DNA of 64,000 nt, from contig NW_025963913.1 of the NCBI RefSeq assembly GCF_023055435.1, forward strand, positions 5,580,001-5,644,000. Reading direction: 5' to 3'. This DNA is from Haliotis rufescens. Its lineage: Eukaryota. The translations under genes and the position numbers were made by a program. Under the pieces are notes generated by a model, which was given only the letters and a program-made list of their open reading frames with translations, searched no databases and had not been told where the DNA came from. Of this stretch, positions 7,137 to 58,292 are shown piece by piece (the stretch's first letter is position 1; the number at the start of each line of letters is the position of its first letter).

Positions 7137-7227
7137 CTGCCGTCTTCTCCGATGTGCCTGAGGATGTTCCCTGGTTTTATGTCTCTGTGCACCACATCCA
7201 GGTCCCGCAGGTGCTTCATGCCCAGAG
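7137..7227 (-). CDS. TBK1: TBK1-like exon 4 (catalytic loop)
   Basis: [30 protein letters not shown]; HRDIKPGN motif; phase 1-2. Confidence 0.95.
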
Positions 7228-7539
7228 CTGCAGAATTACACCACAACCATCACTCCCTGCTACTGACACACACACACATGGTAAACCAACATCTTATTGA
7301 CAATTCTACAGTGCACTCAGTCTGAAGGAAAGAAGACATTGCATGCTGGTAAATGTTTTGCATAATTTCTTTTTATAAATAACACTTACAAATAGAACAA
7401 TTTGCAAAATCTACTTGTGACAAAAGTATGCAAGTGTTGGGAGAGACACAGTAATCATTAGTTTCATGCCTTGTGTACTCTTATTGACTGACGGATATCT
7501 GAAACCAGTCCATTGTCACCCTGTCCAACATTAGTGATG

Positions 7540-8130
7540 TCCATGCTCTCACAAGGCGACCTACAGACATGTTTCAGCACCCTGTCCTTGCTCTCACAAG
7601 GCGACCTACAGACATGTTTCAGCACCTTGTCCATGCTCTCACAAGGTGACCTACAGACATGTTTCAGCACTCTGTCCATGCTCTCACAAGGTGACCTACA
7701 GACATGTTTCAGCACCCTGTCCTTGCTCTCACAAGGCGACCTACAGACATGTTTCAGCACCTTGTCCATGCTCTCACAAGGTGACCTACAGACATGTTTC
7801 AGGACCCTGTCCATGCTCTCACAAGGTGACCTACAGACATGTTTCAGGACCCTATCCATGCTCTCACAAGGTGACCTACAGACATGTTTCAGGACCCTGT
7901 CCATGCTCTCACAAGGTGACCTACAGACATGTTTCAGGACCCTGTCCATGCTCTCACAAGGTGACCTACAGACATGTTTCAGCACTCTGTCCATGCTCTC
8001 ACAAGGTGACCTACAGACATGTTTCAGGACCCTGTCCATGCTCTCACAAGGTGACCTACAGACATGTTTCAGGACCCTGTCCTTGCTCTCACAAGGTGAC
8101 CTACAGACATGTTTCAGCACCCTGTCTATG
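7540..8130. repeat. 45-bp minisatellite (13 copies) in TBK1 intron 3
   Basis: Unit CCATGCTCTCACAAGGTGACCTACAGACATGTTTCAGGACCCTGT. Confidence 0.95.
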
Positions 8131-8610
8131 CTGGGTGAGATTCTGAGTTACAGTCATGTTTCAGGACCCTGTCTATGCTGGGTGAGATTCTGACTTATTG
8201 GCCTGTTTCAGCTCCGAGTCAATGCCGGGTGAGATTCTGACTTATTGGCCTGTTTCAGCTCCAAGTCTATGCTGGATTAGATTCTGACTTATTGGCCTGT
8301 TTCAGCTCCAAGTCTATGATGGATGAGATCTGACTTATTGGCCTGTTTCAGCTCCGAGTCTATGCTGGGTGAGATTCTGACTTATTGGCCTGTTTCAGCT
8401 CCAAGTCTATGATGGATGAGATCTGACTTATTGGCCTGTTTCAGCTCCAAGTCTATGATGGATGAGATTCTGACTTATTAGCCTGTTTCAGCTCCAAGTC
8501 TATGCTGGGTGAGATTCTGACTTATTAGCCTGTTTCAGCTCCAAGTCTATGATGGGTGAGAATCTGAAATAGACATGTTTCAGCACCCTGTCTATGCTGG
8601 GTTAGATTGT
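8131..8610. repeat. 46/47-bp minisatellite (about 10 copies) related to the 45-bp array
   Basis: Unit TATGCTGGGTGAGATTCTGACTTATTGGCCTGTTTCAGCTCCAAGTC. Confidence 0.93.
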
Positions 8611-8630
8611 GGTCTAGGAAGTTGACTCAC

Positions 8631-8760
8631 AGACATGCATCAGCACCAGCAGGAATTCCTCTTCTGAAAGCCCAAAGCCATTATCTGGTTCCTCCAGCAG
8701 CGTGAAGAGACTCCCATGTGGGCAGAGCTCCATCACTAGCACCTTCTGGTAGGAGGTTTG
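8631..8760 (-). CDS. TBK1: TBK1-like exon 3 (hinge region)
   Basis: QTSYQKVLVMELCPHGSLFTLLEEPDNGFGLSEEEFLLVLMHV; ttccag|...|gtgagt, 130 nt, phase 0-1. Confidence 0.95.
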
Positions 8761-8767
8761 CTGGAAC

Positions 8768-11182
8768 ACAGGTGTACTCAATACAGTGCAGGTACACAGT
8801 CAATACAGTGCAGGTACACAGTCAATACAGTGCAGGTACACAGTCAATCAGATACAGGTAAACAGTCAATACAGTGCAGGTACACAGTCAATACAGTGCA
8901 GGTACACAGTCAATACAGTGCAGGTACACGGTCAATACAGTGCAGGTACACAGTCAATACAGGGCAGGTACACACTCAATACAGTGCAGGTACACAGTCA
9001 ATCAGATACAGGTAAACAGTCAATACAGTGCAGGTAAACAGTCAATACAGTGCAGGTACATGGTCAATACAGTGCAGGTACACAGTCAATCAGATACAGG
9101 TACACAGTCAATCAGATACAGGTACACAGTCAATCAGATACAGGTACACAGTCAATCAGATACAGGTAAACAGTCAATACAGGGCAGGTACACAGTCAAT
9201 ACAGTGCAGGTACACAGTCAATACAGGGCAGGTACACAGTCAATCAGATGCAGGTACACAGTCAATCAGATGCAGTTACACAGTCAATCAGATACAGGTA
9301 AACAGTCAATACAGTGCAGGTACACAGTCAATCAGATGCAGGTACACAGTCAATCAGATGCAGGTACACAGTCAATCAGATGCAGGTACACAGTCAATAA
9401 AGTGCAGGTACACACTCAATCAGATACAGGTACACAGTCAATACAGTACAGGTACACAGTCAATCAGATACAGGTACACGGTCAATACAGGGCAGGTACC
9501 CAGTCAATCAGATACAGGTACATAATCAATACAGTGCAGGTACACCGTCAATACAGTGCAGGTACACAGTCAATCAGATACAGGTACACAGTCAATCAGA
9601 TACAGGTACACAGTCAATCATATACAGGTACACAGTCAATCATATATTGTAACACAGTCAATCAGATGCAGGTACACAGTCAATCAGATGCAGGTACACA
9701 GTCAATCAGATACAGGTACACAGTCAATCAGATACAGGTACACAGTCAATCATATACAGGGACACAGTCAATCAGATACAGGTACACAGTCAGTCAGATA
9801 CAGGTACACAGTCAATCATATACAGGTACACAGTCAATCATATACAGGGACACAGTCAATCATATACAGGTACACAGTCAGTCAGATACAGGTACACAGT
9901 CAATCATATACAGGGACACAGGCAATCAGATACAGGTACACAGTCAATCATATACAGGTACACAGTCAATCATATACAGGGACACAGTCAATCAGATACA
10001 GGTACACAGGCAATCATATACAGGTACACAGTCAATCAGATACAGGTACACAGTCAATCATATACAGGGACACAGTCAATCAGATACAGGTACACAGTCA
10101 ATCATATACAGGTACACAGTCAATCATATACAGGTACACAGTCAGTCAGATACAGGTTCACAGTCAGTCAGATACAGGTACACAGTCAATCAGATACAGG
10201 TACACAGTCCACGAGATACAGGGACACAGTCAATTAGATGCAGGTACACAGTCAGTCAGATACAGGTACACAGTCAATCAGATACAGGGACACAGTCAAT
10301 CAGATACAGGTACACAGTCAGTCAGATACAGGTACACAGTCAATCATATACAGGGACACAGTCAATCAGATACAGGTACACGGTCAGTCAGATAAAGGTA
10401 CACAGTCAGTCAGATACAGGTAAACAGTCAATACAGGGCAGGTACACAGTCCATCAGATACAGGTACACAGTCAGTCAGATACAGGTACACAAACAGTCA
10501 GATTCAGGTACACAGTCAATCAGATACAGGTACACAGTCAATCAGATACAGGTACACAGTCAATCAGATGCAGGTACACAGTCAATCAGATACAGATACA
10601 CAGTCAATCAGATACAGGTTCACAGTCAGTCAGATACAGGTACACAGTCAATCAGATACAGGTACACAGTCAGTCAGATACAGGTACACAGTCAATCAGA
10701 TGCAGGTACAGTCAATCATATACAGGTACACAGTCAATCAGATGCAGGTACACAGTCAATCAAATACAGGTACACAGTCAATCAGATACAGGTACACAGT
10801 CAATCAGATACAGGTACACAGTCAATCAGATACAGGTACACAGTCAATCAGATACAGGTACACAGTCAATCAGATACAGGTACACAGTCAATCATATACA
10901 GGTACACAGTCAATCAGATGCAGGTACACAGTCAATCAGATGCAGGTACACAGTCAATCAGATACAGGTACACAGTCAATCAGATACAGGTACACAGTCA
11001 ATCAGATACAGGTACACAGTCAATCAGATGCAGGTACACAGTCAATCAGATGCAGGTACACAGTCAATCTGATGCAGGTACACAGTCAATCAGATACAGG
11101 TACACAGTCAATCAGATACAGGTACACAGTCAATCAGATACAGGTACACAGTCAATCAGATACAGGTACACAGTCAATCAGA
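8768..11182. repeat. 22-bp satellite (about 110 copies) filling TBK1 intron 2
   Basis: Units CAGGTACACAGTCAATCAGATA and CAGGTACACAGTCAATACAGTG. Confidence 0.97.
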
Positions 11183-20089: not shown

Positions 20090-20292
20090 TTATGCAAATT
20101 TGTTTTTGATGTATATAGTTTCTGGCTGGATGATGCCCCCTGTGAGCTCCTCCTCCACCGCCTCCAGCATCCAGTCATGAGTACACACCTCCAGGGCCTC
20201 CCACTCGGCCTTGAAGGCCTTCATGGGGTCCGGAGGTGCCATCATGGCCGACCCTGACATCTGCTCCTGCATAACTCTTGTCTGGTCAGCAG
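20090..20292 (-). CDS. EMC3: EMC3 exon 7 (terminal)
   Basis: AADQTRVMQEQMSGSAMMAPPDPMKAFKAEWEALEV...KNKFA*; total CDS 771 nt. Confidence 0.95.
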
Positions 20293-20721
20293 CTGGCAAC
20301 AGGCAATAGGTAAATGGTAATCAACATTTTTCAAAAACATTCCATGGCTTTTGGGGGAGTATCGGCAACTAGGCTTTTGGCTATTATGCAGTCCTCACAG
20401 ATTTAAAAAGAATCCCTGAATCACCATTTTATCCCATTCTTATTGTTCCACGATGAGGACATCAACCCACGTGTCTATGATTACCTGAAAATTTATACTG
20501 ACACAGTGTCCCAGTTTCACACATAGTTATTTACACAGTCTAGATCCTGGTAAAAAATATGGCAACATATAGTGCAGTGTTCAAAATAGTTTCTGGACAA
20601 CCCAAGCCGTTCATGTTCAGGGATGCAAATTAGCACTAGCCTGCTAGCCTGGACCAGTTTTGTTAATATTAAAGGCATCCTAAGCATTAGTAGAAATTCA
20701 AACATTTGGGGGGTATTGCTA

Positions 20722-20973
<252 letters not shown>

Positions 20974-21067
20974 CTAACATTTATCAGGATCTATATGAGT
21001 GCATCCCAAGTCTTCATTTCACTATCCTATACACTATTCAATATTAACATGGTCTTGGGAGTCCTTG

Positions 21068-21403
21068 GACTGCCTCTATGTTCTGGTGGTAGAGTGTCCG
21101 CCCGGAGAGCGGAAGGTCCGGATTTTAATCCCGGCTGTGTCATACCAAAAGACACTAAAAGATGGTACTTGTTGTTACCCTGTCTGGCGCTCAGCATTAA
21201 GGGGCTAAAACAAGGACTGGTTAGCTCGAAGTCAGTATACCATGTCTGAGTGGGTTATTCATGTTAAACTGCTTCATGGTATCTCGGTGGCCTAGCACTA
21301 TAAATCGGCATCAGTCCGAACTAGTACAAGCACGCACACTCACACGCACACGCACACACGTCGCTATAAGTGCAATAATCTTGGATGCAACATTTCACCT
21401 CAC
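21068..21403 (+). mobile_element. SINE family C copy
   Basis: Homologous to 25566-25916; 14-bp TSD CTTGGGAGTCCTTG. Confidence 0.88.
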
Positions 21404-21650
21404 CTTGGGAGTCCTTGAGGTTTGCTGCTATTGTATCAGCATCTAGAGGCCCCTCAAGTTTCATTTAAAAAATAAGGGTTATGACAAGGGCCCTATTACT
21501 TTCAAGCTAAATGTTGTACACTGCTAAAGTTAAATCTGAAAACCACATTAATGTCATCAGGTTCATCTTGCAAGAAAAGGGGAGCACTAAAATAAATTAC
21601 ATTTGAGATCTTCTTACACCATGAACACAGGGCACAGAATCCTCACTTAC

Positions 21651-21732
21651 CATGAAGCGTCGAGAGAGGCCAGCTCTACTCCTCGCTGCAACATTGGCTT
21701 AAATCTCAGCGTTAGAGGGAAGGGAACCTTTG
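21651..21732 (-). CDS. EMC3: EMC3 exon 5
   Basis: [28 protein letters not shown]; phase 1-2. Confidence 0.96.
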
Positions 21733-21890
21733 CTGTAAGCAGATGACACTTGGTTAAATTTCAATGCATCAACCACTGTCAACAATAGTCAACATTCGTG
21801 TTCATGTATAAATGTTAAAAATAAAACACAAGCACAAGATACTGAACAGGCATTTTCTTCTGTTTATTTCATGTCTTCTTCAAAAAGTAA

Positions 21891-22030
21891 GTGAGTGAGC
21901 AATATTACAGCAATATCAGACGGGGGACACCAGAAATGGGCTTCACACATTGTACCCATGTCGGGAAACGAACCCGGGTCTTCAGCGTGACGAGTGATTG
22001 CTTTAACCACTAGGCTACCTGACCACCCCC
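21891..22030 (-). mobile_element. SINE family A copy
   Basis: 14-bp TSD TCTTCAAAAAGTAA; homologous to 43518-43680. Confidence 0.86.
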
Positions 22031-22602
22031 TCTTCAAAAAGTAAATTAAGTTGAACAAAATATTCTCTTGTCTGCTTTTCATGCTTATTATTAACCCCTA
22101 TATATAAATAGCTACGTTACTGAAAATATACCTATACCTATCACTTTAACAATAAACACTAAAATGTAATAGATACTAAGATAGAAAAATATGCTACCAA
22201 TTCAAACAAATTTTAAAAGTAAACAAACTTCATATAAAATATAACTTATAAGGGAATTGATCGAAACTATTATATAATATCTATAGCTGAAAAATGCATT
22301 ACAGTAGTACCAGATTACTAATAACCCTGAGTGGTGGCACAAGGGGAAAAGCCATGACTTGTCATGTCATGTGCTTGGTTTGATTCCTGAGAAGGGGGAC
22401 AATGTGTACAGACCATTTCTGATGTTCCTCTGATATGACATGAAGGGAATGTTTCTAAAAGTGGTGTAAACCCATACTCCCTCGTTAATAACCCTTGTAC
22501 CAGTTCTACTCGGAATGTGATAAAGATAAGATTTATTTTCAATGATTATACATTGTATATGGAGAGACTGTTTGGTCATCAAAAAGGGTCTAGTCTACTT
22601 AC

Positions 22603-22707
22603 TGGTCAAGAATCCTGAAAAAGCCCAGTTGATCCAGCCCCCGATGACAATCATAGGAAGAACATTGGTGATGTTGCCTTTCATCATGTCTGTCATCATT
22701 GTCGGGT
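22603..22707 (-). CDS. EMC3: EMC3 exon 4
   Basis: [35 protein letters not shown]; donor gtaagt; phase 1-1. Confidence 0.96.
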
Positions 22708-22968
22708 CTGATAAAGGTATGATTAACATGATGAAGCTTCAGTTTCATGTATTTCACACTTGAGTCATGTACAATGTGATATGATTAAATGATGTTTCAG
22801 GATCAATTTAATAATAATTGTGTTTATTACTTTACAGGATTAAATCAAGATAATAAGTGAATACTTAAAGAGATTCTTTTCATTTACCCCCCCAATGCTT
22901 TTACATGTCAATGTCTTCCTACACTACATGTATAACACAGAGCTCTAGCACGACATGACCAAGTTTAC

Positions 22969-23062
22969 CTGTCATAGGATTCTTGACCTGGGCTTCCCTT
23001 TTTTCTGTTTTGAAGAATCCCTTTTCAGCATTGTTGAAGAAATTCTTACGAACCAAGAATGA
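22969..23062 (-). CDS. EMC3: EMC3 exon 3
   Basis: SFLVRKNFFNNAEKGFFKTEKREAQVKNPMT; phase 0-1. Confidence 0.95.
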
Positions 23063-23182
23063 CTGGAAAACAGAACAATAATTATGCATATAATTATGAA
23101 ATTTATTACTTCATCATTTTCAACAATGTTCAAGTTGGGAAGTGAAATAATAGAATAAGTTTTCTGCAACAACATAAGTTAC

Positions 23183-23240
23183 CTGTTTTGGTATATATTT
23201 TCCATTTTCTCTCAGTATTCTGCTTCTGATGAGTGCATGG
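23183..23240 (-). CDS. EMC3: EMC3 exon 2
   Basis: HALIRSRILRENGKYIPKQ; phase 2-0. Confidence 0.95.
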
Positions 23241-24186
23241 CTGTAAGAAAGCAAACAATTAATAAAGCACTGTGTATGCATAAAGCTTATAAAATCATGA
23301 CTATGATCATGAAGTTGGCAAAAAGGTTTCCTACATACAAATCCTTGGATCATAGGGCTATAGCATAAACAGCACCAAACAAAACGGTAACTAGCTTCGC
23401 ATAAATTAAACATGTTTGACATGAATATAAACTGATTTTAGATTGTTGTTGTTGTCATAGGATGAATAAACCCTAGGGAGTACTGCACTTTACCAAGTGC
23501 ATTTTTTCGGATTTAAAAGCAACGGGGGGCTTGTGCACAATCACACATAATGCATGTTAGTATTGTTACACTAAATTATATTGGATTAACGTGTTGACAG
23601 CGGTGAACTAGCTAACGCCTAAACTGAAGGGTCGTAAAGGGTTGTTTTATTTGGCAAGGGGAACTCAACCCTAAGGACCGTGAAGGTGTGTTTTATTGGA
23701 ATACCTAACCCTAAAGATCGCCAAGGGAACTGGGTCAGAAAAGGAATCCAAGGTCTAAGAGTAGAGTTGGGGCACAGTACTACCCATATACAATTCTATA
23801 ATAACAATTATAGAATTGTAGTGATGTGGTCCTATGGCTGGGTGTAGTATACCCTAACCCACAGGACCATGTGCCTCGTCTACGAGTTTTTTGCGAATTT
23901 GTTTATTATTATTAGTTAAATGATCCTGTGCCTAACCCTAAGGCAGGATCAACGAGGCACGCGTGCCACAGAGAGGAGTCTAATCAAGTCGCCAATTAGC
24001 GCTTTAAGCTGCGCCCGGTAATCTGCAGTCTTACCCAGTAACCCTGCAGTATTGCCAAAAAAATTGAATTTTCGTCTGAAAGTCTGAACTTTTGTACCGA
24101 TGCCAAAATTTATATTCGCAAATATGAGCTGTAGCTGCACGTCCGTAAACCGGCGAAACAAATTAGCTATATCCATTCCGACATAC

Positions 24187-24335
24187 CTGTCAGATACTTG
24201 CTGTAATTCGGACTTCTTTTCTGAGGATATCAAAATTGTCACATAATGTCTAATTATGCCAATCAGAAATGTGATTAAAACTATAGGTAAGAAAACCCAA
24301 ACTCTAATGTTGGAATCAAGCAGCAGCTCCGCCAT
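24187..24335 (-). CDS. EMC3: ER membrane protein complex subunit 3, exon 1
   Basis: [49 protein letters not shown]; donor gtatgt; phase 2. Confidence 0.96.
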
Positions 24336-24674
24336 GTTGATTTTCAGAGGAAGTGACGTCGGGTATCAGGGACTGTTCATTTCTATGAATTAAAATACAT
24401 TAGCATAATAGAATATTAATAAGTTGATTATCAAAGATACATTTTTTCACACTATTAATTAAGACAAATACTGTATATGATATCATAAGGCGGGTAGATA
24501 CTTACATGGTCATTGTTAATCATAATGAACGAATAAAAATATATAAAGAAACAACCCGTCCCTCGGCAACGAGCACCTGCGGGTTGACTACTTTTTACTG
24601 ATTGTCCTAGTCACTGAGGCATGGTCAAAGCAAGATATCAAGAAATGTGATATGCATTGAGGTTTCATGCAATC
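24336..24674. promoter_or_regulatory. Bidirectional promoter region between EMC3 and UXT
   Basis: Divergent ATGs only 339 bp apart; ETS-CRE composite GGAAGTGACGTC at 24349-24360; YY1-like AACATGGCGG over the EMC3 ATG. Confidence 0.65.
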
Positions 24675-34349: not shown

Positions 34350-35078
34350 CAGTTGTGCCATGACTGTCAGTAGTGATAATCTAGCTGTACCAGACGTTGA
34401 TCAGTCAAACTGGAGACCAAGGGAAGATGTGCCATTAGCTGTCAGTAGTGATATTCTAGGTGTAGCAGACGTTGATCAGTCAAACTGGAGACCAAGGGAA
34501 GACGTGCCATTAACTGTCAGTAGTGATATTCTAGCTGTAGCAGATGTGGATCAGTCAAACTGGAGACCAAGGGAAGATGTGCCATTAACTGTCAGTAGTA
34601 ATATTCTAGCTGTAGCAGACGTGGATCAGTCAAACTGGAGACCAAGGAAAGATAACCAGTTGTGCCATTATTTTCAGTAGTGATATTCTAGCTGTAGCAG
34701 ACGTGGATAAGTCCAACTGGAGAACAAGGGAAGATAACCAGATGTGCCATGAACCGCCAGTAGTGATATTCTAGCTGTAGCAGACGTGGATCAGTCAAAC
34801 TTGAGTCCAAGGGAAGATAACCAGATGTGCCATTAACTGTCAGTAGTGATATTCTAGCTGTAGCAGACGTGGATTAGTCAAACTTGAGTCCAAGGGAAGA
34901 TAACCAGTTGTGCCATGAACCGCCAGTAGTGATATTCTAGCTGTAGAAGACGTGGATCAGTCAAACTTGAGACCAAGGGAAGATAACCAGTTGTGCCATG
35001 AACCGCCAGTAGTGATATTCTAGCTGTAGCAGACGTGGATCAGTCAAACTTGAGACCAAGGGAAGATAACCAGTTGTG
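34350..35078. repeat. 75/83-bp minisatellite (about 9 copies) overlapping the FAM185A stop codon
   Basis: Unit TCAGTCAAACTTGAGACCAAGGGAAGATAACCAGTTGTGCCATGAACCGCCAGTAGTGATATTCTAGCTGTAGCAGACGTGGA. Confidence 0.94.
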
Positions 35079-42115: not shown

Positions 42116-45100
42116 GTGTGACATGGTATCACATACACCGCGTGACATGGAATCGCATACACGGTGTGGCATGGTATCACATATATGGTGTGACATGGTA
42201 TCACATACGCCGCGTGACATGGTATCACATACACGGTGTGGCATGGTATCACATACACCACGTGACGTGGTATCACATATATGGTGTGACATGGTATCAC
42301 ATACACCGCGTGACATGGTATCACATACATGGTGTGGCATGGTATCACATATATGGTGTGACATGGTATCACATACACCGCGTAGCATGGTATCACATAC
42401 ACGGTGTGACATGGTATCACATACGCCACGTGACATGGTATCACATACACAGTGTGGCATGGTATCCCATATATGGTGTGACATGGTATCACATACACCG
42501 TGTGACATGGTATCACATACAGGGTGTGATGTGGTATCACCTGAACCGCGTGACATGGAATCGCATACACGGTGTGGCATGGTATCACATATATGGTGTG
42601 ACATGGTATCACATACGCCGCGTGACATGGTATCACATACACGGTGTGGCATGGTATCACATACACCACGTGACGTGGTATCACATATATGGTGTGACAT
42701 GGTATCACATACACCGTGTGACATGGTATCACATACATGGTGTGGCATGGTATCACATATATGGTGTGACATGGTATCACATACACCGCGTGACATGGTA
42801 TCACATACACGGTGTGACATGGTATCACATACGCCACGTGACATGGTATCACATACACGGTGTGGCATGGTATCCCATATATGGTGTGACATGGTATCAC
42901 ATACACCGTGTGACATGGTATCACATACATGGTGTGATGTGGTATCACATGAACCGCGTGACATGGTATCACATACACGGTGTGGCATGGTATCCCATAT
43001 ATGGTGTGACATGGTATCACATACACCGTGTGACATGGTATCACATACATGGTGTGATGTGGTATCACATGAACCGCGTGACATGGTATCACATACACGG
43101 TGTGGCATGGTATCACATATATGGTGTGACATGGTATCACATACACCGTGTGACATGATATCACATACATGGTGTGATGTGGTATCACATGAACCGCGTG
43201 ACATGGTATCACGTACACCGCGTGACATGGTATCACATATGTGGTGTGACATGGTATCACATACACCACGTGACGTGGTATCACATATATGGTGTGACAT
43301 GGTATCACATACACCGCGTGACATGGTATCACATACATGGTGTGGCATGGTATCACATATATGGTGTGACATGGTATCACATACACCGCGTGACATGGAA
43401 TCACATACACGGTGTGGCATGGTATCACATACACGGTGTGACATGGTATCACATATGCCACGTGACATGGTATCACATACACTGTGTGACATGGTATCAC
43501 ATACACCGCGTGACATGGTGAGTGAGTATGGTTTTACGCCGCCTTTAGCAATATTCCAGCAATATCACGGCGGGGGACACCAGAAATGGGCTTCACACAT
43601 TGTACCCATGTCGGGAATCAAACCCGGATCTTCGGCGTGACGAGCGAACGTTTTAACCACTAGGCTACCCGACCGCCCCTCCGCGTGACATTGTATCACA
43701 TACACGGTGTGACAAGGTATCACATACACTGAGTGACATGGTATCACATACACGGTGTGACAAGGTATCACATACAATGCATGACATGGTATCACATACA
43801 CGGTGTGACAAGGTATCACATATACTGCGTGACATGGTATCACATACACGGTGTGACAAGGTATCACATACACCGCATGACATGGTATCACAGATATGGT
43901 CTGACATGGTATCACATACACAGCGTGACATGGTATCACATACACGGTGTGACAAGGTATCACATACACCACATGACATGGTATCACATATATGGTGTGA
44001 CATGGTATCACATACACCGCGTGACATGGTATCACATACACCACGTGACATGGTATCACATACATGGTGTGATGTGGTATCGAATGAACCGCGTGACATG
44101 GTATCACATACATGGTGTGATGTGGTATCACATACATGGCGTGACATGGTATCACATACACCGCGTGACATGGTATCACATTCATGGTGTGATGTGGTAA
44201 CACATACATGGTGTGACATGGTATCACATACACAACGTGACATGGTATCACATACATGGTGTGATGTGGTATAACATACACTGCGTCACTCGGTATGACA
44301 TACACCACGTGACATGGTATTACATACATGGTGTGATGTGGTATCACATACACCACGTGACATGGTATTACATACATGGTGTGATGTGGTATCACATACA
44401 CCACGTGACATGGTATCACATACATGGTGTGACATGGTATCACATACATGGTGTGATGTAGTATCACATACAGCGCGTGACATGGTATCACATACATGGT
44501 GTGATGTAGTATCAAATACACCACGTCACATGGTATGACATACACCACGTGACATGGTATTACGTACATGGTGTGATGTGGTATCACATACACAACGTGA
44601 CATGGTATCACATACACCGCGTGACATGGTATCACATACTCGCGTGACATGGTATCACATACACCGTGTGACATGGTATCACATACACTGCGTGACATGG
44701 TATCACATACACCGCGTGACATGGTATCACATACATGGCATGACATGGTATCACATACACCTTGTCACATGGTATTACATTCATGGTGTGATGTGGTATC
44801 ACATACACCTTACGACATGGTATCACATACATGGTGTGACATGGTATCACATACAGGGTGTGATGTGGTATCACATACACTGCGTGACATGGTATCACAT
44901 ACACAATGTGACATGGTACCACATACACGACGTGATATGGTATTACATTCATGGTGTGATGTGGTATCACATACACAGTGTGACATGGTATCACATACAG
45001 GGTGTGATGTGGTATCACATACACCATGTGACATAGTATCACAAACATGGCGTGACATGGTATCACATACACCCCTTGACATGGTATCACATACACAGCG

Positions 45101-46490
45101 TGACATGGTATCACATACACCCCATGACATGGTATCACATACACAGCGTGACATGGTACCATATACACCGCGTGACATGGTATCACATACAGGGTGTAAT
45201 GTGGTATCACATACACAATGTGACATGGTATCACATACAGGGTGTGATGTAGTATCACATACAGGGTGTGATGTGGTATCACATACACAATGTGACATTG
45301 TATCACATACACCTTGTGACATGGTATCACATACACCGCGTGACATGGTATCACATACATGGTGTGATGTGGTATCACATACACCTCGTGACATGGTATC
45401 ACATACATGGTCTGATGTGGTTTCACATACACAGTGTGACATGTTATAACATACATGGTGTGACATGGTATGAAATACATGGTGAGACATGGTATAACAT
45501 TAGCAATGTGACATGGTATCACATACACCTCGTGACATGGTATCACATACATGGTGTGACATGGTATAACATACACAATGTGACATTGTAACACATACAT
45601 CTCGTGACATGGTATCACAAACACGATGTGACATGGTATCTCATACACCTTGTGACATGGTATCACATACATGGTGTAATGTGGTATCACATACATGGTG
45701 TGACATGGTATCACATACATGGTGTTATGTGGTATTACATATATGGTGTGACATGGTATCACATACACCTTGTGACATGATATCACATACATGGTGTGAA
45801 GTGGTATCACATACACCTTGTGACATGATATCACATACACCTTGTGACATGGTATGACATACATGGTGTGATGTGGTATCACATACATGGTGTGACATGG
45901 TATCACATACACCACATGACATGGTATCACATACACCGCATGACATGGTATCACATACACCGCGTGACATGGTATCACATACATGGTGTGACATGGTATC
46001 ACATACACCGCGTGACATGGTATCACATACATGGTGTGACATGGTATCACATACATCGCGTCACATGGTATAACATACACCGCGTGACATGGTATCACAT
46101 ACACAGTGTGACATGGTATCACATACATGGTGTGACATGGTATAACATACTACGGTAATGTGGTATCACATACACCGCGTCACATGGTATCACATACATG
46201 GTGCGATGTGGTATCACATACATGGTGTGACATGGTATATCATACTACGGTAATGTGGTATCACATACACCGCGTCACATGGTATTACATACACCTCGTG
46301 ACATGGTATCACATACACCGCGTGACATGGTATCACATATATGGTGTGACATGGTATCACATACACAATGTGACATAGTATCATATACACCTTGTGACAT
46401 AGTATCGCATATAGGGTGTGACATGGTATCACATACATATGGTGTGACATGGTATCACATACAGGGCGTGACATTGTATCACATACACGA
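42116..46490. repeat. 24-bp satellite (about 175 copies), interrupted by a SINE
   Basis: Unit CATGGTATCACATACACCGCGTGA and variants. Confidence 0.97.
43518..43680 (-). mobile_element. Short tRNA(Asp)-like SINE (family A) inserted in the 24-bp satellite
   Basis: Head GGGGCGGTCGGGTAGCCTAGTGGTTAAAACGTTCGCTCGTCACGCCGAAGATCCGGG; (ACTC)n tail; flanking duplication CCGCGTGACAT. Confidence 0.88.
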
Positions 46491-48850: not shown

Positions 48851-48981
48851 AATATTATTGTGAGTGAGTTATGTTTAATGTCACTGTGAATAGTATTGCA
48901 ACTAAATAACAACTTGTGCCCTTAGTGTTTGACGGAGGCCAATGTGACCCAGGTCGGGCTATTTTGCTGGAACACACAAAC

Positions 48982-49782
48982 ACAGACGTGGAGGTCACAG
49001 GCGTGGAGGTCACAGGCATGGAGGTCACAGGCGTGGGGGTCACAGGCGCGGGGGTCACAGGCGTGGGGGTCACAGGCGTGGGGGTCACAGGCATGGAGGT
49101 CACAGGCGTGGGGGTCACAGGCGCGGGGGTCACAGGCGTGGGGGTCACAGGCATGGAGGTCACAGGCGTGGGGGTCACAGGCGTGGGGGTCACAGGCGTG
49201 GGGGTCACAGGCGCGGGGGTCACAGGCGCGGGGGTCACAGGCGTGGGGGTCACAGGCGTGGAGGTCACAGGCATGGAGGTAACAGGCATGGAGGTCATAG
49301 GCGTGGAGGTCACAGGCATGGAGGTAACAGGCGTGGAGGTCACAGGCATGGAGGTCATAGGCGTGGAGGTCACGGGCATGGAGGTCACAGGCGTGGAGGT
49401 CACGGGCATGGAGGTCACGGGCATGGAGGTCACAGGCGTGGAGGTAACAGGCGTGGAGGTCACAGGCATGGAGGTCATAGGCGTGGAGGTCACAGGCGTG
49501 GAGGTCACGGGCATGGAGGTCACAGGCGTGGAGGTCACGGGCATGGAGGTCACGGGCATGGAGGTCACAGGCATGGAGGTAACAGGCCCGGAGGTCACAG
49601 GCATGGAGGTCATAGGCGTGGAGGTCACAGGCGTGGAGGTCACGGGCATGGAGGTCACAGGCGTGGAGGTCACGGGCATGGAGGTCACGGGCATGGAGGT
49701 CACAGGCGTGGAGGTCACGGGCATGGAGGTCATAGGCGTGGAGGTCACAGGCGTGGAGGTCACGGGCATGGAGGTCACAGGC
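48982..49782. repeat. 15-bp GC-rich minisatellite (about 53 copies)
   Basis: Unit GGAGGTCACAGGCGT with ggg/atg variants. Confidence 0.96.
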
Positions 49783-56229: not shown

Positions 56230-56990
56230 GTCGTTGCTGTTGCTGTTGTAGTGACTGGTTCTTTTGATGATATAGGGGTTGTTGCTGTTGTACTGACTGT
56301 AGCTGTTGTACTGACTGTAGCTGTTGTATTAACTGTAGCTGTTGTACTGACTGTAGCTGTTGTAATGACTGTTGCTGTTGTAATGACTGTTGCTGTTGTA
56401 ATGACTGTAGCTGTTGTAATGACTGTTGCTGTTGTAATGACTGTTGCTGTTGTAATGACTGTAGTCATTGTAATGACTGTTGCTGTTGTAATGACTGTAG
56501 CTGTTGTATTCACTTTTGCTGTTGTATCGATTGTTGTTGTTGTATTGACTGTTGTTGTTGTAATGATTGTTGTTGTTTTATTGACTGTTGCTGTTGTAAT
56601 GACTGTAGCTGTTGTCATGACTGTTGTTGTATTACTGTAGCTGTTGTAATGACTGTTGTTGTATTACTGTAGCTGTTGTAATGACTGTTGTTGTATTGAC
56701 TGTTGCTGTTGTAATGACTGTTGTTGTATTGACTGTAGCTGTTGTAATGACTGTTGTTGTATTGACTGTTGCTTTTGTAATGTCTGTTGTTGTATTGACT
56801 GTTGCTGTTGTAATGTCTGTTGTTGTATTGACTGTTGCTGTTGTAATGACTGTTGTTGTATTGACTGTAGCTGTTGTAATGACTGTTGTTGTATTACTGT
56901 AGTGGTGTAATGACTATTGCTGTTGTAATGACTGTTTCGGCTGACTGTTGTTGATTTTATACCGGCTGTTGTTATAATGGCTGTTGCTCT
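56230..56990. repeat. Low-complexity 18-bp-based GTT/GCT repeat (Thr-rich on the minus strand)
   Basis: Unit GACTGTTGCTGTTGTAAT and derivatives. Confidence 0.88.
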
Positions 56991-57000
56991 TGTATTGACA

Positions 57001-58292
57001 TGGTGGTGATGTTGTTATGGCAGTTGCCAGGACAGTCACAACTGGGGAACTGGTTGGTTGTGTGTCTCCTCTGGGTGACGTGGCGGTGATGTTGTTATGA
57101 CGGTTGCCTGGACAGTCACAACTGGGGAACTGGTTGGTTGTGTGTCTCCTCTGGGTGACGTGGCGGTGATGTTGTTATGACGGTTACCAGGACAGTCACA
57201 ACTGGGGAACTGGTTGGTTGTGTGTCTCCTCTGGGTGACGTGGCGGTGATGTTGTTATGACGGTTACCAGGACAGTCACAACTGGGGAACTGGTTGGTCG
57301 TGTGCCTCCTCTGGGTGACGTGGCGGTGATGTTGTTATGATGGTTACCAGGACAGTCACAACTGGGGAACTGGTTGGTTGTGTGTCTCCTCTGGGTGACG
57401 TGGCGGTGATGTTGTTATGACGGTTACCAGGACAGTCACAACTGGGGAACTGGTTGGTTGTGTGTCTCCTCTGGGTGACGTGGCGGTGATGTTGTTATGA
57501 CGGTTACCAGGACAGTCACAACTGGGGAACTGGTTGGTCGTGTGCCTCCTCTGGGTGACGTGGCGGTGATGTTGTTATGACGGTTACCAGGACAGTCACA
57601 ACTGGGTGAACTGGTTGGTTGTGTGTCTCCTCTGGGTGACGTTGCGGTGATGATGTTATGACGGTTGCCTGGACAGTCACAACTGGGGAACTGGTTGGTT
57701 GTGTGTCTCCTCTGGGTGACGTGGCGGTGATGTTGTTATGACGGTTACCAGGACAGTCACAACTGGGGAACTGGTAGGTTGTGTGTCTCCTCTGGGTGTC
57801 GTGGCGGTGATTTTGTTATGACGGTTACCAGGACAGTCACAACTGGGGAACTGGTTGGTTGTGTGTCTCCTCTGGGTGACGTGGCGGTGATGTTGTTATG
57901 ACGGTTACCAGGACAGTCACAACTGGGGAACTGGTTGGTTGTGTGTCTCCTCTGGGTGACGTGGCGGTGATGTTGTAATGACGGTTACCAGGACAGTCAC
58001 AACTGGGGAACTGGTTGGTTGTGTGTCTCCTCTGGGTGACGTGGCGGTGATGTTGTTATGACGGTTGCCTGGACAGTCACAACTGGGGAACTGGTTGGTC
58101 GTGTGCCTCCTCTGGGTGACGTGGCGGTGATGTTGTTATGACGGTTACCAGGACAGTCACAACTGGGGAACTGGTTGGTTGTGTGTCTCCTCTGGGTGAC
58201 GTGGCGGTGATGTTGTTATGACGGTTACCAGGACAGTCACAACTGGGGAACTGGTTGCTTCTGTGTCGTCTCTGAGTGACGTGGCGGTGATG
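57001..58292. repeat. 80-bp minisatellite (about 16 copies)
   Basis: Unit GGACAGTCACAACTGGGGAACTGGTTGGTTGTGTGTCTCCTCTGGGTGACGTGGCGGTGATGTTGTTATGACGGTTACCA. Confidence 0.96.

Follow-up and report, generated by a model that had tools for sequence, protein, structure and literature searches.

A junction-spanning minisatellite, probably derived from an exon end and its donor site, in a TBK1-like gene of Haliotis rufescens

An intron of a TBK1-like kinase gene of Haliotis rufescens carries a minisatellite whose units resemble the end of the preceding exon together with its 5' splice site. The locus raises two questions: whether the array grew out of the exon-intron junction, and whether the splice sites copied within it influence the expression of the kinase. 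An initial annotation of the window, i.e., the entire 64,000-nucleotide stretch of DNA analyzed here, had proposed that the array grew from the junction and could provide decoy donors for an NMD-type dosage control of an innate-immunity kinase. We consider it quite probable that the array is a locus-specific junction-spanning minisatellite (a "mirage"), which arose when a 60-bp piece comprising the end of exon 3 and its donor was duplicated in tandem, and which is tolerated since splicing uses the first, authentic donor.

Host gene and architecture of the array

The host gene resides on the minus strand of the window. Its exon at 8631–8760 matches human TBK1, all 12 of the 12 PDB matches being TBK1 (best E-value 6e-12), and is 95–98% identical to Haliotis TBK1-like proteins. 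TBK1-like proteins of Haliotis relatives contain the domains PF00069, PF18396, and PF18394, in keeping with the TBK1/IKK-epsilon kinases, in which a kinase domain precedes ubiquitin-like and coiled-coil domains. The name TBK1-like follows the best matches. P0123 (labelled Haliotis rufescens) maps as 18 exon blocks over the window and the adjoining 20 kb, defining 17 introns, all with GT-AG borders. What is called exon 3 here is third among the coding exons and corresponds to human exon 4. The gene features surrounding the array are as follows (a slash marks the splice junction).

8631 to 8760, minus strand: third coding exon of the TBK1-like gene, 130 nt, ending in VLMHV plus T (human TBK1 match with E 6e-12, P0123 mapping, spliced contigs)
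8625 to 8630, minus strand: authentic 5' splice site TCT/GTGAGT, with GTAAGT seen in a DNA contig from organism B (joint 7227–8631 in 4/4 putative RNA runs; 8628 C>T in run X12)
8614 to 8616, minus strand: in-frame TAG reached by any extension of exon 3 (reading-frame translation)
7228 to 8630, minus strand: host intron, 1403 nt, phase 1, at the position of human TBK1 intron 4 (human alignment, P0123 mapping, contig joints)
7137 to 7227, minus strand: fourth coding exon, 91 nt, with the HRDIKPGN catalytic loop (P0123 mapping, contigs)

His42 of the abalone exon is aligned with human TBK1 residue 118. According to the part of the human report consulted, this residue, Asp118, contains c.352, and the donor of exon 4 comes after c.358 (PMC5629935). 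The abalone intron follows the same base as human c.358 and is therefore ancient; the array is contained in it. The initial annotation had also linked the array to intron gain, and a model of intron gain by tandem duplication has been published for mirages, as far as the consulted part of that paper goes (PMC3087553). However, the intron does not occupy a new position absent from outgroups, because it agrees with human c.358 in both codon and phase, and the position also recurs in a distant paralogue. Furthermore, no copy lies outside the intron, and inclusion of any of the copied exon pieces would bring an in-frame stop. The array being an intermediate of intron gain is thus exceedingly improbable, and the suggested relevance to intron gain falls away.

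The array itself comprises the following elements, listed from the exon outward.

8588 to 8647, minus strand: founder monomer, 60 nt, the last 17 exon and the first 43 intron nucleotides (end-to-end alignment with all unit types)
8543 to 8587, minus strand: first copy, 45 nt, with 15 of 17 exon nucleotides identical and the donor GT lost (register alignment)
8169 to 8542, minus strand: eight copies of 46–47 bp with ATAAGT (no GT) at the donor position and the founder's distal 21 nt kept (15–20 of 21) (TRF, alignment)
8122 to 8168, minus strand: hybrid copy, 47 nt, with GTAACT at the donor position (alignment)
7537 to 8121, minus strand: thirteen 45-bp copies, each with TCT/GTAGGT and a second CTT/GTGAGA (TRF, 17-mer search, alignment)

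On the sense strand, the founder is followed in exon register by 23 copies (1 + 8 + 1 hybrid + 13), and the first monomer spans the exon-intron boundary of a head-to-tail array, as in mirages and in the human F7 IVS7 array. The splice signal is also reiterated, with a GT at the donor position in 14 of the 23 copies and none in nine. The thirteen 45-bp units reported initially were recovered at 7537–8121 (TRF calls this array at 7538–8132 with 13.2 copies), and the 47-bp array indeed grades through hybrid units, which flank it. Both arrays are present in organisms A, B, and C. In organism B, the array is multi-copy, judging from a depth of 253 versus 32 in run X12, in whose contigs the array is collapsed. 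The persistence in the three organisms fits short-term neutrality but also retention.

Origin of the units from the exon-intron junction

The 27-mer across the junction (8621–8647) reads as first described, and it matches the 45-bp units at 22 of 27 positions in two of the 13 units and at 21 of 27 in the other eleven. At 125,686 other places in the window, the best ungapped match of this 27-mer was 18/27, and none of 1000 shuffled units reached 22/27 (maximum 20). For each of the four unit types, none of 2000 shuffles equalled the global alignment score with the founder.

A coincidental likeness, with the array being a dispersed repeat or an unrelated minisatellite, would be favored by the minisatellite-rich genome (39 TRF rows in the window), beyond which we found no support for it. 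It is opposed by the shuffle and window controls, by the in-register head-to-tail continuity of the array with the junction, and by the occurrence at a single locus. DNA searches of the genome (G000) with each array retrieved no unit at other loci, in a loose search that does not prove rarity. The 17-mer of the 45-bp unit has 13 exact matches genome-wide, all inside the array, and its 23 one-mismatch matches outside the array compare with 27 for the reversed control; 17 of these 23 sites were compared with the 45-bp unit and are only 22–27/45 identical. For the 21-mer of the 47-bp unit, all eight genome-wide matches with up to two mismatches fall inside the array. The unit is accordingly specific to this locus, and the dispersal over unrelated loci that the initial annotation had considered was not encountered in the genome searches. 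Within the sensitivity of the searches run, coincidence appears already refuted and deserves next to no probability.

The 45- and 47-bp families preserve complementary parts of the 60-bp founder: the 45-bp family keeps the intron positions +1 to +12, and the 47-bp family the founder's distal 21 nt. The alignments make it likely that different deletions in the 60-nt junction monomer gave rise to the two families. The initial view of an array grown from the junction is therefore supported as to origin, but the founder would be 60 nt in length, and the families keep different parts of it. A first local duplication would have generated a 60-bp repeat, from which a 13-nt deletion may have produced the 47-bp family, and a 15-nt deletion plus some change the 45-bp family. 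Each family would have expanded by slippage or unequal exchange and then been homogenised. Later, the exon may have changed from Lys to Met and, in this species, the donor +3 from A to G, with the copies keeping the older letters.

All 23 copies carry the Lys codon AAA at the position where the exon reads ATG (Met). TBK1 of H. cracherodii, H. asinina, and H. rubra reads VLKHV, and LMH occurs once among the homologues tallied, in P0123 (VLMHV). Lys is likely the older state at this position, in agreement with the check proposed initially as to whether K is ancestral to M. At the donor, +3 is A in 22 of the 22 alignable copies and in the junction of organism B (GTAAGT in a DNA contig). The genome holds two distant TBK1/IKK-epsilon-like paralogous exons (L044 and L045 on G000:C68; 53% and 49% identity). 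L044 has Lys (AAA) and a GTAAG donor at the same intron position as abalone TBK1, where it lacks an array. In the runs of organisms B and C, the codon does not deviate from ATG and both arrays are covered by pieces, from which it follows that the array is likely older than the Lys-to-Met change, and this change likely older than the split of B and C. The letters of the exon have changed and those of the copies have stayed, evidence against continuing exchange between the two. The copies may thus serve as a fossil record of the exon, with the older Lys codon and donor letter ordering events in abalone, albeit of modest value. The Lys-to-Met substitution relative to the three other Haliotis species (8638–8640, minus strand) lies in the kinase domain.

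Splice sites in the copies and use of the authentic donor

The RNA evidence consists of contigs from the related species B and C, whose status as RNA is guessed and which drop rare forms; targets of NMD are exactly the rare forms that such contigs would miss. The canonical joint 7227–8631 appears in all four putative RNA runs (organisms B and C, assembled contigs), in accordance with regular splicing at the authentic site in related species as far as contigs blind to rare forms can tell. In none of the three putative RNA runs with a complete joint table (7140–8770, assembled contigs) does a joint lead into one of the two arrays. Unspliced pieces of low depth across the arrays, possibly pre-mRNA or DNA, were excluded from the evidence. 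In the contigs of two organism C runs, a 75-nt gap occurs at 7372–7448 in intron 3, outside the arrays, which is probably a genomic deletion. Continued splicing at the first, authentic donor is the likely reason why the array is tolerated.

The quality of the copied sites bears on this reading. The initial annotation listed 13 pseudo-donors; TCT/GTAGGT is present in 13 of 13 units, but these sites differ from the true donor (GTAGGT against GTGAGT) and carry a change at +4, GT is absent from the donor position of the nine copies closest to the exon, and the second donor-like GT in each 45-bp unit (CTT/GTGAGA) had gone unlisted. The first 45-bp pseudo-donor is located 526 nt downstream of the authentic donor. 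With a matrix from 22 local donor sites, which can serve only as a rough local guide, the authentic donor scores 0.39 bits (leave-one-out range of the sites −1.06 to 7.03) and is weak, ranking among the weakest of 23. The 45-bp pseudo-donor scores −1.43, under all 22 real donors, and the second GT 0.71, similar to the true donor. A count of U1 pairing gives 5.5 for both the true donor and the 45-bp pseudo-donor, without separating them. Competition between the weak authentic donor and the second GT is therefore conceivable and speaks against simple tolerance, as does the use of some pseudo-sites in IFI6 (6-16), CBS, and ABCA7, as far as the consulted parts of those reports describe it.

As for acceptors, an AG precedes the pseudo-donor by 17 nt in 11 of 13 units, in line with the "most" of the initial annotation. 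The acceptors of such micro-exons have 2–3 upstream AGs, versus 0–1 in the 17 acceptor contexts of TBK1, and a pyrimidine share of 0.35–0.41 in 12 of 13, versus 0.47–0.82 in the acceptors of the gene. A 17-nt micro-exon had been suggested to act by a frameshift, but in 13 of 13 units its inclusion would immediately introduce an in-frame TGA, so that a frameshift would have no chance to matter. Read-through of the authentic donor meets the in-frame TAG at 8614–8616 that was predicted initially. Since extension meets TAG and the micro-exon TGA, no alternative product gives a kinase. Rare use of a copy would thus cause a premature stop before the catalytic loop with predicted clearance by NMD, presumably noise rather than regulation.

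The stop in every alternative outcome also speaks for a decoy model, in which decoy donors or micro-exons divert part of the TBK1 pre-mRNA to NMD and the length of the array thereby sets how much of this innate-immunity kinase is made. With the weak authentic donor facing 13 GT-bearing copies and 13 second GT sites, the model has material to work on, and precedents exist in the consulted parts of two reports, namely the relation of VNTR length to expression in ABCA7 (PMC5954066) and the dose sensitivity of human TBK1 at the corresponding donor (PMC5629935). However, all three runs with a complete table show the canonical joint only and no array joint (contigs of related species), the first 45-bp donor is far downstream and scores below 22 of 22 real donors, and the micro-exon acceptors are poor. 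Moreover, the isoform retaining one unit in ABCA7 did not vary with VNTR size, as reported in the part consulted (PMC5954066). The GT-bearing copies are distal and altered, and the gene contains a further two arrays of this type, of which one has 31 exact strong donors (see below), leaving the initially proposed dosage control unsupported and making the decoy model very unlikely. In its boldest form, the 13 distal units with two donor-like GTs each would divert a length-dependent share of TBK1 to NMD and, together with the 58-copy ladder in intron 11, constitute a heritable dial of kinase dose, which we regard as highly doubtful. If array length did tune the TBK1 dose, it could be a usable immunity marker in a farmed mollusc.

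Alternatively, the copies might have been defused: lineages with damaged donors (+1 G>A, +5 G>C, +4 A>G) would have expanded beside a weak donor and intact ones been purged. The three families each have a different donor substitution, the first copy lost the site, and the nine copies nearest to a donor ranking among the weakest of 23 are devoid of GT, all as this scenario would have it. Given the divergence, however, the chance of a donor hit in all three families is p = 0.097, which is not significant; the second GT of the 45-bp unit scores like the true donor; and intron 11 of the same gene carries 31 exact strong donor 9-mers. We therefore consider this scenario unlikely.

Related arrays in known systems and in the neighborhood

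The array, which we read as a tolerated mirage, has close counterparts elsewhere; the following comparisons draw on the consulted parts of the cited papers. In amphioxus, mirages of Adh3 and the globins BflGb6 and BflGb9 are boundary-spanning tandem copies that leave regular splicing undisturbed (PMC3087553). Like them, the abalone array has copies spanning exon and intron, many but not all with the splice signal, as well as a homogenised interior, divergent boundary units, and several loci per genome. It differs in residing in a mollusc, in having 47- and 45-bp families from one 60-bp founder, and in preserving an older codon. The first monomer also spans the junction in the human F7, CBS IVS13, IFI6 (6-16), LMNB2, and PDGF intron 4 arrays, and in F7 minigenes the most upstream donor alone is used (PMC1557585). 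The human F7 IVS7 37-bp VNTR thus shares with the abalone array the first monomer across the boundary and splicing from the most upstream donor. However, the pseudo-sites of F7 have the same sequence as the authentic donor and adjoin it, whereas none is identical in abalone, where GT is missing from the nine nearest copies and the first 45-bp site is 526 nt away. Neither GTGAGT nor GTAAGT occurs at the donor position in any of the 23 copies, which places the array outside the strict F7-IVS7 subtype.

The ABCA7 intron-18 25-bp VNTR, whose length is correlated with reduced expression and with exon skipping, and for which an isoform retaining one unit exists (PMC5954066), resembles the abalone array in being intronic, in beginning at the donor, and in that use of a repeat donor leads to an out-of-frame transcript. 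In contrast to the abalone unit, the ABCA7 unit starts at GT and holds no exon sequence, and its splice products and length-expression correlation have been measured, whereas the abalone array is known from sequence and contig joints. In the literature searched, we found no description of the abalone TBK1 locus or of an abalone/TBK1 case; one paper reports a 27-bp intronic minisatellite, with no junction link stated in the part consulted (PMC6905558). The abalone TBK1 array is a clean molluscan example of an already known repeat type.

Within TBK1, junction-spanning arrays occupy three of 17 introns. Intron 11 (L037:5691–7448, outside the window) contains ~58 copies of a 32-bp unit, composed of the exon-11 end and the donor and starting at the junction; the strong donor 9-mer recurs exactly in 31 copies, and read-through would meet a stop within the second unit. 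With these exact 9-mers, the intron-11 array belongs to the strict F7-IVS7 subtype and is a better F7-like donor ladder than the exon-3 array. Intron 14 (L037:1356–2825, outside the window) contains ~40 copies of a 37-bp unit across the acceptor of the next exon, with 25 matches to the acceptor 8-mer. The three TBK1 arrays, having weak, perfect, and acceptor-type sites, offer a natural test of splice-site choice outside mammals.

A 22-bp array of ~109 copies (8789–11182) fills 2394 of the 2471 nt of TBK1 intron 2 and, without reaching across the exon-3 acceptor, ends 28 nt short of it; together with the exon-3-derived array, exon 3 thus has arrays on both sides. None of the six introns of FAM185A has a junction-spanning array. 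At 34354–35078, an 83-bp array of ~9 copies in this FAM185A-like gene has grown from the last codons, the stop codon, and the start of the 3' UTR. The three of 17 introns in TBK1 together with the stop-codon array of FAM185A indicate that parts of genes are commonly amplified in place here and that this is not peculiar to the exon-3 donor.

We rejected an origin of the intron-12 array in the end of exon 12, as 2763 of 5000 shuffles were equally good. The 45-bp unit and the unit of intron 11 share an inverted match of 11/12, which 82 of 5000 shuffles reached (uncorrected) and which is probably due to chance. The exons at 20093–24365 belong to a putative EMC3-like gene, named from its translation, and the TRF list has no tandem array there. 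Further long minisatellites at 42116–46489, 48981–49782, and 56280–58292 have units of 24, 15, 18, and 80 bp and contain long low-complexity open frames.
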